Part shown: positions 27,488-34,877 of the stretch, piece by piece
Layout: every line of letters begins with the position of its first letter
Position numbering within the stretch: the stretch's first letter is position 1
Assembly: GCF_003334385.1 (NCBI RefSeq)
Contig: NZ_QOWN01000008.1
Strand: one strand, 5' to 3'
DNA length: 64,000 nucleotides
Source of the DNA: Escherichia coli
Lineage (GTDB): Bacteria; Pseudomonadota; Gammaproteobacteria; Enterobacterales; Enterobacteriaceae
Position numbers and translations under genes: made by a program
The notes under the pieces: generated by a model
Seen by the model: only the letters and a program-made list of their open reading frames with translations
Told to the model about the DNA's origin: nothing
Database searches by the model: none

Positions 27488-27539
27488 TAGCATGCTTCCA
27501 GTTTTCTCAGTCAGAGACTGAGCGTTAATCGAAATTCGG

Positions 27540-31950: not shown

Positions 31951-32394
31951 TTAGCGTTGACGATTAGCGATACTGTTCGTTTCCGGGTTCATACGCTCGC
32001 GGCGTGAACGCGCGGGCGTCCAGTCCAGCGCGCCAATACGCACCAGATAAACCAGACCTGCCAGTAACACAAAAATAAAAATTGCAGCTTCCACAAAGCC
32101 TACCCAGCCGCTTTCGCGGATAGAGGTTGACCATGCGAACAGATACAGCGCTTCAACGTCGAAGATAACGAAGAACATGGCCACCAGATAAAACTTGGCG
32201 GACAGGCGTAAGCGGGCGGAGCCGACCGAGTCGATACCGGATTCAAACGGCACGTTTTTCGACCTCGCGCGTGCGCGACCGCCTAAAAACCAACCGCCTA
32301 CCAGCATCAGGCAACACAGGCCAATGGCAACGATAAGAAAGATAGCGAATGCCCAGTGATGAGCGATGACTTCAGTGGATGTTGACATACTCAT
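31951..32394 (-). CDS. nuoA: NADH:quinone oxidoreductase subunit A (147 aa)
   Basis: [39 protein letters not shown]...; first gene of the operon. Confidence 0.95.
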
Positions 32395-32940
32395 TGCTTA
32401 CTCATCAAAAGTAGCGCCAGATTCACTGCTCTTCACGGCAGATGGACGCCACATCGATTCATGGGGAGGAATAAAAAAAACCTTACAATCACTGTAGAAA
32501 TTCTTTTATACAGCTAATTGATGTGGTTTTTTACTCCTTTCTATAACCTTTTGTCAACTTTAACAAAAGTTTCTTCACATTAGTTTACATAATATCAACA
32601 CCATTAGCATTTAATGCCCTTTCACCCCAGATCCTTGACGACTCCAGGATAATTAGATGTTGTTGAATCGTGTCCGTTGTGAAGCAATGGAAAAAATACG
32701 GGTCTATTTTGACAGGAATTTGTGTCGATTCCTCCCCCCAAAAGAGAGTATTTTCTTGATCTGTGACACGCTTTTGTCATTCCATAACAAAAACGCAGCA
32801 ACAAATTTACGTATTTTTTAACATCATTGTAGCAGGTGATTTTTTTCAGGCGATTATTTGTGCGTTCGGGACGTGAATCTCTGGTGGTTGAAAAATGAAC
32901 AGTTTTGTACGTTCTGCACTATGCGATGAAGGATTTTTAC
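32395..32940 (-). promoter_or_regulatory. nuo operon promoter/leader region (long AT-rich upstream region)
   Basis: About 0.55 kb noncoding, AT-rich, immediately upstream of nuoA; individual sites not resolved by eye. Confidence 0.5.
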
Positions 32941-32941
32941 T

Positions 32942-32998
32942 AAAAAAAAGCCGCTGGGGTTTAAAACACCCCCAGCGGCTCGTTTTTTACACTATTGT
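32942..32998 (-). terminator. Rho-independent terminator downstream of lrhA (symmetric, potentially bidirectional)
   Basis: aaaaaaaa-GCCGCTGGGG-tttaaaacac-CCCCAGCGGC-tcgtttttt: 10-bp GC-rich stem flanked by an A-run and a T-run. Confidence 0.65.
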
Positions 32999-33024
32999 CT
33001 CAGGAATTATCTATCGTCCGTCGA

Positions 33025-33966
<942 letters not shown>

Positions 33967-34877
33967 TTATCACTTACTGGCGGCTCATACTGAGCTGGTT
34001 AATGCTGTGCACACACAAACAAGCAATTCCATTTGTAATGTGCCTCCCTGGCAGTTTCATCCGGAACCCGGACGAAAGTAAAAATGCATATGAGTTGCAC
34101 TAAAAAAGCGACTCACATTGTTCCGTTATAATGCCTGAAGTAGATCACAGAATATATCTTCAGGGATCGCATATCTATTAAGTTACTCACTCTTTTCTAT
34201 TTATGACATGCGCGTGTTTGTATAAATGTAAATGTGAGTCCTTGTTCCACTCTCGTGCAGCATCGCTGGTCATACGCGAACACGTACCAACAGCAATGGT
34301 GAGGCGGCATCAAGAGCAGGGATCCGTCATTTATCCGAGCATTTTACCCCAAAAACCTTTTATTTATAAGGGTCATTGCGAATTATCTGATGCAAAGTTA
34401 TGTTAGGCAAAGTAATCTTCTATTATTAATAAGCACATCAAAACCTTTTTGAATATTAAATAATAATTAATTAGCATCATCCTCATTCATTAATTCCGCT
34501 TAACAATAGTTTCACACCTTGCCCCCATTGCGACACCTCGGAAATCATCACGCAGTTAAACTCTCCGTAATGAGGAAATATCATCATCGCGTTTCATTAG
34601 TGAATTCTTAAATGAGGCATTTTCACACTATTATCTTACAGATAAAAAAACCAGACCTACAATTAAGAATCAGAACAATTCACTATATAACATTGCATGT
34701 AAAGCATATACACCTCATTATTTTGTCATTATTAAGTTATTAACAGCACAATCGAGCCTTCCCCTCTGGCAAAATCTTATTCTGCAGACCTTCAAAACAC
34801 CGTCCTGGGGGAGTACATTGTTCTAAGCTGACTTCCACGGCAGGGAGTGGCGATAACAGCAAAAAAGGTCAAGATTC

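Follow-up and report, generated by a model that had tools for sequence, protein, structure and literature searches.

The promoter of the nuoA-N operon, which encodes respiratory Complex I of Escherichia coli, reportedly lies in a spacer of about 560 bp between lrhA and nuoA and is said to be controlled by ArcA, NarL, FNR, IHF and Fis. In organization it resembles the promoters of cydAB, cyoABCDE, sdhCDAB, ndh and pdhR-aceEF, with which it has in common a long AT-rich upstream region and several ArcA-P regions; Park 2013 mentions cyd, cyo, nuo and pdhR side by side. Cra, CpxR and PdhR inputs are likewise shared between these respiratory promoters and nuo, and RyhB controls sdh as well. Unlike in the other promoters named, the length of the nuo spacer varies by no more than about 25 bp among 75 species, and as it starts at a terminator it does not form a divergent promoter region. 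Here, we describe the lrhA-nuoA spacer contained in a window of 64,000 nt of E. coli DNA (contig NZ_QOWN01000008.1, assembly GCF_003334385.1), to which all positions below refer unless another accession is given.

The lrhA-nuoA control region and its promoter

The region is assigned with high confidence to the lrhA-nuoA intergenic control region of E. coli K-12, composed of a terminator, regulatory DNA, a sigma-70 promoter, a leader and a RyhB site (Table 1). Over 32300-33100 the sequence shows 100% identity to E. coli K-12 MG1655, and 5424 of the 5426 complete genomes of E. coli contain this segment. According to the open reading frame listing and the RefSeq annotation, nuoC, nuoB, nuoA (31951-32394, with an ATG at 32394) and lrhA (33025-33963) are all encoded on the minus strand, with alaA beyond lrhA on the plus strand, and zero genes are annotated between lrhA and nuoA. 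The spacer spans 32395-33024 (630 bp), with the part between nuoA and the terminator hairpin at 32395-32941. Its GC content is 38.6% as compared to 51.4% for the whole window, and in 200-bp windows the GC fraction amounts to 0.33-0.41 in the spacer and 0.50-0.58 in the flanking genes. Coordinates, composition and annotation hence bear out an earlier note on this DNA, made from the sequence alone, which had described about 550 bp of AT-rich noncoding DNA upstream of nuoA. Published positions were transferred by the relation window = U00096.2 - 2,370,700 = U00096.3 - 2,372,678, which was obtained by matching published sequence strings and verified on independent strings near lrhA.

As such, the nuo control region is already known and has been studied since 1995; it is the same DNA as the nuoA-N promoter of Bongaerts 1995 and Wackwitz 1999, with nothing different in kind. 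Later genome-wide data extend this picture by another ArcA region, by Cra, CpxR and RyhB, by a dominant transcription start site (TSS) at 32522 and by a 3' end in the leader. The strict spacer length, several invariant blocks without assigned factor and a terminator-like leader hairpin with 3' ends in vivo go beyond the literature consulted.

The core promoter is formed by a perfect -35 hexamer (TTGACA, 32552-32557, 6/6), an 18-bp spacer and the -10 hexamer TAAAAA (32528-32533, 4/6), i.e. by hexamers at the 16-18 bp spacing of a sigma-70 promoter located upstream of a mapped start. In the genome-wide TSS table of Kim 2012, nuoA has starts at 2403222, with 4218 reads, and at 2403219, with 1744 reads; in the window these are 32522 (major) and 32519, located 6 and 9 nt downstream of TAAAAA. 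The resulting leader is 125-128 nt long, or 263 nt if the distal 5' end at 32657 (see below) is real. A promoter immediately upstream of nuoA with no regulator binding further upstream, named in the earlier note as the arrangement that would speak against a complex control region, was not found: transcription starts 125-128 nt upstream of the gene, and the regulator sites lie beyond.

For the cross-species comparison, one NuoA scan yielded 80 species of Enterobacteriaceae, including members of Escherichia, Citrobacter, Salmonella, Enterobacter, Klebsiella, Kluyvera, Kosakonia, Cedecea, Buttiauxella and Raoultella; alignments of the leader comprise 76 sequences. In all 80 species lrhA is located immediately upstream of nuoA, and the spacer measures 619-646 bp in 75 of the 79 species in which its length could be determined. 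Longer spacers, presumably due to insertions, were observed in four species (L014, L021, L060 and L074, with 664, 747, 748 and 943 bp). Identity of the spacer to K-12 has a median of 63% and is distributed very unevenly along its length. Near-invariant are the first repeat of the upstream ArcA region, 32744-32779, 32703-32737, 32657-32672, 32515-32588 and most of 32395-32481, and in several of these blocks conservation about equals that at the 5' end of the nuoA coding region (column identity 0.93-0.99 versus 0.97). The block 32515-32588, with 93-99% identity, covers the promoter (TTGACA-18-TAAAAA), which does not vary among 76 aligned species, and the proximal ArcA/CpxR-like repeats. As it coincides with both, it is taken as the core of the control region, which provides independent support for the TSS at 32522. 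Among the complete E. coli genomes, identity over 32300-33100 is 90-95% in 519 and 95-99% in 1917; this divergence exceeds that of typical core E. coli DNA and is consistent with an unevenly constrained spacer.

Following the direction of transcription (minus strand), the lrhA terminator precedes about 100 bp of loosely constrained AT-rich DNA and a further 300 bp or so of upstream regulatory DNA, which holds two ArcA-P regions, Cra-type and CpxR-type motifs and the near-invariant blocks. The sigma-70 core promoter then starts transcription at 32522/32519. In the leader, a 5' hairpin is followed by an unpaired C-rich stretch and, ahead of the ribosome-binding site, by a conserved hairpin with a U-rich tract. 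ArcA and FNR (oxygen/redox), NarL (nitrate), Cra (carbon source), Fis and IHF (growth phase) and CpxR (envelope stress) act on nuo transcription, whereupon RyhB sets translation and stability according to iron status. Only part of the 550 bp serves as promoter: about 128 nt are transcribed leader, and 32835-32940 is poorly conserved spacer.

Several observations weigh against this assignment. A consensus scan of the spacer gave no FNR, CRP or IHF site within 2, 2 and 1 mismatches, respectively, and matches to the NarL heptamer and to Fis at chance frequency; with scans that are empty or at chance, most individual sites are not placeable by sequence alone. The final T usual in -10 hexamers is missing from TAAAAA, which is why the promoter scan made no call at this position. 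Moreover, three 5' ends are in circulation for nuoA (32657, 32522/19 and ~32484). The distal one was reconstructed from the +1 of the fusion oligo in Chareyre 2019 combined with the site positions of Park 2013, and the proximal one (~32482-32484) from the second position set of Park 2013 combined with the numbering of Chareyre 2019; both may be processing sites or minor promoters. The end at ~32484 falls directly behind a hairpin, in an unpaired A/U-rich stretch, and could be a processing site. The RNA hairpin just downstream of 32657 is weakly supported, with a mean z of -0.81. Finally, the Term-seq lists of Adams 2021 contain no 3' end at the U8 tract of the lrhA terminator (32942-32949), where ligation to a 3' end buried within the A6:U8-extended duplex may be difficult and such an end hence have been missed.

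Table 1 Features of the lrhA-nuoA region, arranged along the minus strand from lrhA to nuoA
Feature	Position	Strand	Basis and remarks
lrhA intrinsic terminator	32942..32988	-	Symmetric A-tract / 10-bp GC stem / T-tract hairpin; sequence, fold, conservation
Poorly conserved AT-rich spacer	32835..32940	.	Column identity 0.26-0.41; holds Fis-like palindrome GGTTGAAAAATGAAC (32886-32900)
ArcA-P region "nuoA2", upstream	32781..32823	-	Park 2013 ChIP-seq supplement; three direct repeats
Near-invariant block ATGACAAAAGCGTGTCACAGATCAAGAAAATACTCT	32744..32779	-	36 bp, 95% column identity across 80 species
Conserved block GGGGGGAGGAAT ... TTCCTGTCAAAATAG	32703..32737	-	80-species comparison
Conserved CGGACACGATTCAAC with Cra-type half-site TGAATCG (plus strand, 32664-32670)	32657..32672	-	80/80 species; ends at distal 5' end 32657
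ArcA-P region "nuoA1", promoter-proximal	32571..32601	-	Park 2013; overlaps CpxR-like GTAAA-N5-GTGAA (32574-32588)
Core sigma-70 promoter	32519..32557	-	TTGACA/TAAAAA, published TSSs, 93-99% identity across 80 species
5'-terminal leader hairpin (CAAUUAGCUGUA...UACAGUGAUUG)	32486..32520	-	Leader fold; followed by UAAGG-U8 and the ~32482-32484 5' end
AUUCCUCCCC (inverted copy of GGGGAGGAAT), then TGAATCG (32455-32461)	32455..32473	-	Overlapped by ATG 32463 of a non-conserved upstream open reading frame (uORF)
Conserved leader hairpin and CUUUUGAU	32404..32452	-	RNAalifold, covariation, Term-seq 3' ends 32408 and 32404
nuoA ribosome-binding region and start codon(s), RyhB pairing site	32383..32405	-	Chareyre 2019; RyhB core duplex

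Regulator sites and conserved blocks

From its length, the spacer had been expected to hold a complex promoter served by several factors. This is confirmed by published binding or control by ArcA, Cra and CpxR, and by NarL, FNR, IHF and Fis in the cited primary literature. Chromatin immunoprecipitation followed by sequencing (ChIP-seq) revealed two ArcA-P regions at nuo, and ArcA represses the operon 2.7-fold under anaerobic conditions (Park 2013). The upstream sequence was reported as TGTTAAAAAATACGTAAATTTGTTGCTGCGTTTTTGTTATGGA at U00096.2 2403481-2403523, the proximal one as GTGTTGATATTATGTAAACTAATGTGAAGAA at U00096.2 2403271-2403301. Both sites were recovered by a scan for direct-repeat pairs (TGTTA-like, 11-bp phasing), and the first repeat of the upstream region, TGTTAAAAAA, is invariant across species. 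Among the factors for which the earlier note proposed a motif scan, ArcA gave this pair of sites, FNR and IHF had no match, and NarL and Fis stayed at chance.

Cra was found upstream of nuoA-N by chromatin immunoprecipitation combined with exonuclease treatment (ChIP-exo) and activates the operon on acetate (Kim 2018). The exact Cra-type half-site TGAATCG is present in two copies, one in nuoA sense (32455-32461) and one on the plus strand (32664-32670), as compared to 0.18 expected (P = 0.02). Conservation extends to 66 of the 80 species for the former and to all 80 for the latter, with the permitted variant TGAAACG in Klebsiella. The full 14-nt Cra consensus was matched only with 2-3 mismatches, at chance frequency. 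The conserved TGAATCG copies fit the published Cra binding; the bases contacted are a prediction from the motif. For CpxR, the sequence GTAAA-N5-GTGAA at 32574-32588 fits the consensus of this regulator and overlaps the ArcA repeats. A CpxR site in the nuo promoter, acting in direct repression, has been reported by the Raivio group (PMC8831704), and judged by consensus it would be placed at these bases. As related by papers citing the primary studies, control by NarL and FNR was described in Bongaerts 1995, Fis sites upstream of nuo in Wackwitz 1999 and Zhang 2004, and IHF is counted among the nuo regulators in this literature as a group (Bongaerts 1995, Wackwitz 1999, Zhang 2004). An exact NarL heptamer, TACTCCT, overlaps the -10 region (32532-32538) and is probably a coincidence. 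Which bases are contacted by NarL, FNR, IHF and Fis, as well as by CpxR and Cra, we infer from such comparisons. A scan of the spacer for the Fur consensus gave no match at reasonable stringency.

The remaining conserved DNA consists of blocks without assigned factor. The block at 32744-32779, located about 220-260 bp upstream of the main TSS, combines a perfect palindrome, TGACA-N6-TGTCA, with a perfect FNR/CRP-type half-site, TTGAT (plus strand, 32756-32760); the consensus scan found no full FNR, CRP or IHF site in it. A 9-mer of this block, TGACAAAAG, recurs at the -35 region (32548-32556). Within the block at 32703-32737, the 10-nt sequence GGGGAGGAAT (32726-32735) recurs in inverted orientation at 32464-32473, with the centres about 262 bp apart and both copies near-invariant in the 80 species. 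A long-range RNA helix GGGGAGGAAU:AUUCCUCCCC was considered and rejected: the arms show no covariation, and the upstream copy lies 5' of every mapped start. Given this lack of covariation, a pair of DNA sites sharing one motif or factor is more likely than an RNA helix. In the poorly conserved stretch next to the terminator, GGTTGAAAAATGAAC matches the Fis consensus with 1 mismatch, and such matches are not enriched over shuffles. The sequence at 32635-32655 is likewise poorly conserved.

The leader RNA and the nuoA start

The 128-nt leader starting at 32522 folds into two hairpins, at 32486-32520 and at 32411-32452, with an unpaired U8/CCUCCCC stretch between them. The 5'-terminal hairpin has 76% paired cells and double changes in 8 of its 11 pairs, in a part where the alignment is shaky; the mean z is -1.19 over 63 distinct sequences. 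The second hairpin is built from an outer stem GUGGCGUC/GGCGCUAC and an inner stem CUGC/GCAG, was recovered by RNAalifold from the 76 sequences, and is kept in 76 of the 76 aligned species, with 98.4% of cells paired as compared to 16-59% after a shift of the partners by 1-3 columns. In 14-15 sequences two neighbouring pairs swap GC<->AU and CG<->UA, and other pairs alternate between G-U, G-C and A-U, which implies an RNA of the sense strand rather than a DNA palindrome. The covariation lends moderate support to the hairpin, given that the double changes may reflect few evolutionary events. Its free energy is -16.9 kcal/mol in E. coli, with a mean of -15.8 and z = -1.84 over 50 distinct sequences, and a U-rich tract follows in every lineage. 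RNAalifold also proposed the long-range pairs GUUGACA:UGUCAAC and GGAG:CUCC. These were discarded, as their 5' partners are the -35 hexamer and the spacer, upstream of the TSS at 32522; being invariant or nearly so, the pairs themselves give no evidence either way.

The Term-seq data of Adams 2021 place two 3' ends directly after this hairpin, at U00096.3 2405086 and 2405082, i.e. at window positions 32408 and 32404, -14 and -10 from the start codon. With 282,730 reads at 32408 and 475,924 reads at 32404 they are among the most abundant ends listed, and they are rated Rho-independent (score 0.82, "No") with an intrinsic terminator score of 11.56 at a threshold of 3. No regulatory element is annotated for them; they appear in the supplementary table only, the main text being silent on nuo, and a literature search found no paper on the element beyond this table. 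A stable hairpin, a U tract and a Rho-independent 3' end in vivo together fit an intrinsic terminator in the 5' untranslated region (5'UTR). The closest described cases are the 5'UTR intrinsic terminators and small RNAs of Adams 2021, e.g. ispU, which have the hairpin and U tract upstream of the start codon, the Rho-independent 3' end and the high terminator score in common with nuoA. The nuoA U tract differs in being short and in overlapping the ribosome-binding and RyhB region, and any role here is a predicted one.

Against this background, the element may be a working attenuator, or the 3' end of a stable small RNA of about 115-119 nt derived from the 5'UTR (32522 to 32408/32404). We hold this reading tentatively, as somewhat less probable than not. 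It is favored by the retention of the hairpin, compensatory and G-U changes included, throughout the 76 aligned species, by the stable fold and the U-rich tract in all lineages, by the abundant 3' ends with their terminator score, and by the silence of the Adams 2021 main text on nuo. Conversely, the tract contains only 4 consecutive U, and no conserved antiterminator pairing was found by eye or with RNAalifold, where the candidate CCACAUC:GAUGUGG varies without compensation. The 3' ends could equally be exonuclease stops at the hairpin after cleavage near the ribosome-binding site, and a hairpin with a U tract is just as possible as an Hfq landing site for RyhB or as a stabilizer of the mRNA; it also counts here that the double changes are confined to two adjacent pairs. 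The leader element may thus be an attenuator, a stable 5'UTR RNA end, an exonuclease stop or an Hfq platform for RyhB. A wider proposal, in which the hairpin acts as attenuator and/or as the 3' end of a regulatory RNA and the fixed spacer length, the TGACA-N6-TGTCA palindrome and the GGGGAGGAAT pair reflect a phased or looped nucleoprotein complex with a further regulator, is considered doubtful.

The nuoG RNA motif (Rfam RF01748) resembles the nuoA leader hairpin in being a conserved enterobacterial hairpin within the nuo operon mRNA. It differs in sequence and position, and the nuoA hairpin has no Rfam family match; kinship of the two was rejected for lack of similarity. In the window, RF01748 is matched at 27495-27537 (minus strand) with 50.3 bits as compared to a gathering threshold of 33. 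The match is located just upstream of nuoG within the operon, and it is the sole match above a gathering threshold in the 64 kb.

At the end of the leader, RyhB pairs with the ribosome-binding site and start codon of nuoA, as demonstrated by compensatory mutations in Chareyre 2019. The RyhB core duplex, computed with a verified RyhB sequence, maps to this published site, although its energy is not clearly better than that of shuffles (P about 0.08); folding of the full-length RyhB duplex gave a meaningless result and was abandoned. The bases of the site are invariant, synonymous sites included, which suggests a constraint at the RNA level such as RyhB pairing or initiation. nuoA begins with ATGAGTATGTCAACA (32380-32394), and four Kluyvera/Pluralibacter sequences carry TTG in place of the first ATG. 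Neither the second ATG (32388) nor any synonymous site after it varies among 76 species, and this second ATG may be the true start codon.

The lrhA terminator and the role of the spacer

Read on the plus strand, the lrhA terminator is composed of A8 (32942-32949), the stem arm GCCGCTGGGG (32950-32959), a 10-nt loop, the stem arm CCCCAGCGGC (32970-32979), tcg and T6 (32983-32988). In lrhA sense, U8 directly abuts a 10-bp stem with 8 G-C pairs, 35 nt past the lrhA stop. The fold amounts to -29.8 kcal/mol (z = -4.9) on the lrhA-sense strand and to -27.2 kcal/mol (z = -4.3) on the plus strand, and 0 of 200 shuffles folded as well. A GC-rich stem-loop, a U tract directly after it, a position downstream of the stop codon and a conserved structure are thus all present, as is characteristic of an intrinsic terminator; a simple terminator scan passed over the hairpin only because the 10-nt loop exceeds its 8-nt limit. 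In 72 of the 80 species a hairpin is followed by at least four T, the T tract beginning at a median distance of 76 nt from the lrhA stop; 68 of the 80 have at least four A on the 5' flank as well. The arms vary by genus (GAGCCGCTGG/CCAGCGGCTC, GGGCCGTTGG/CCAACGGCCC, GAACCACTC/GAGTGGTTC) and stay complementary, which indicates that the element is selected as a structure, its symmetry included. Adams 2021 reports a "primary" lrhA 3' end at 32994/5 on the minus strand, 31 nt past the stop and upstream of the hairpin, which could be a processing site or reflect a ligation bias against the recessed end. A conserved insulation of nuo from lrhA read-through is plausible.

The element had been described in the earlier note as a bidirectional terminator at 32942-32998. 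Hairpin and two-strand symmetry stand, while the right-hand limit lies about 10 nt beyond the end of the T tract. Use in both directions, i.e. the additional halting of an antisense or divergent plus-strand transcript born in the nuo control region, is improbable. The symmetric A-tract / stem / T-tract layout in 68 of the species and the stable plus-strand fold are in its favor; on the other hand, the tables of Kim 2012 and Adams 2021 contain no plus-strand TSS or 3' end between nuoA and lrhA. There is no convergent gene, and in K-12 the plus-strand T6 lies 3 nt off the stem whereas U8 abuts it in lrhA sense. Besides, an A tract ahead of the stem enhances termination in the forward direction, and this alone would account for the symmetry.

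That the spacer hides an unannotated gene, be it a small protein (uORF from ATG 32463 to TGA 32434, MNRCGVHLP) or an independent small RNA, is highly improbable: an ATG or GTG occupies the aligned position in 72 of 76 species and the Term-seq 3' ends indicate that an abundant short RNA species may exist, yet conservation of the start codon is explained by its overlap with the conserved TGAATCG motif, the reading frame varies in length (9, 14, 20-23 codons, or open-ended) and is shifted by 1-nt indels, CCUCCCC instead of a Shine-Dalgarno sequence precedes the ATG, the near-invariant blocks show no 3-base periodicity, and the spacer has no annotated gene and only chance-level Rfam matches (E >= 0.2, none at gathering thresholds). 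The uORF is therefore probably not a gene.

On the far side of lrhA, the lrhA-alaA spacer (33964-34877) is a second long AT-rich spacer of 914 bp with a GC fraction of 0.32-0.43. The published lrhA TSS maps to 34334, which corresponds to a 371-nt 5'UTR, and Term-seq 3' ends within this leader fall at 34255 and 34013 (-50 from the lrhA start). lrhA may thus carry a long, possibly attenuated leader of its own.

Among the respiratory enzymes, Complex I is the largest and needs the most iron; its 15-kb operon is entered at a single point. That the spacer is the meeting point of oxygen, nitrate, carbon, growth-phase, envelope-stress and iron signals is textbook knowledge; what is new is a cross-species map of the bases under constraint, including blocks without assigned factor. 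If the leader hairpin does attenuate transcription or yield a small RNA, it would constitute another control point for respiration and, because RyhB control of nuo already affects gentamicin sensitivity, for aminoglycoside uptake.

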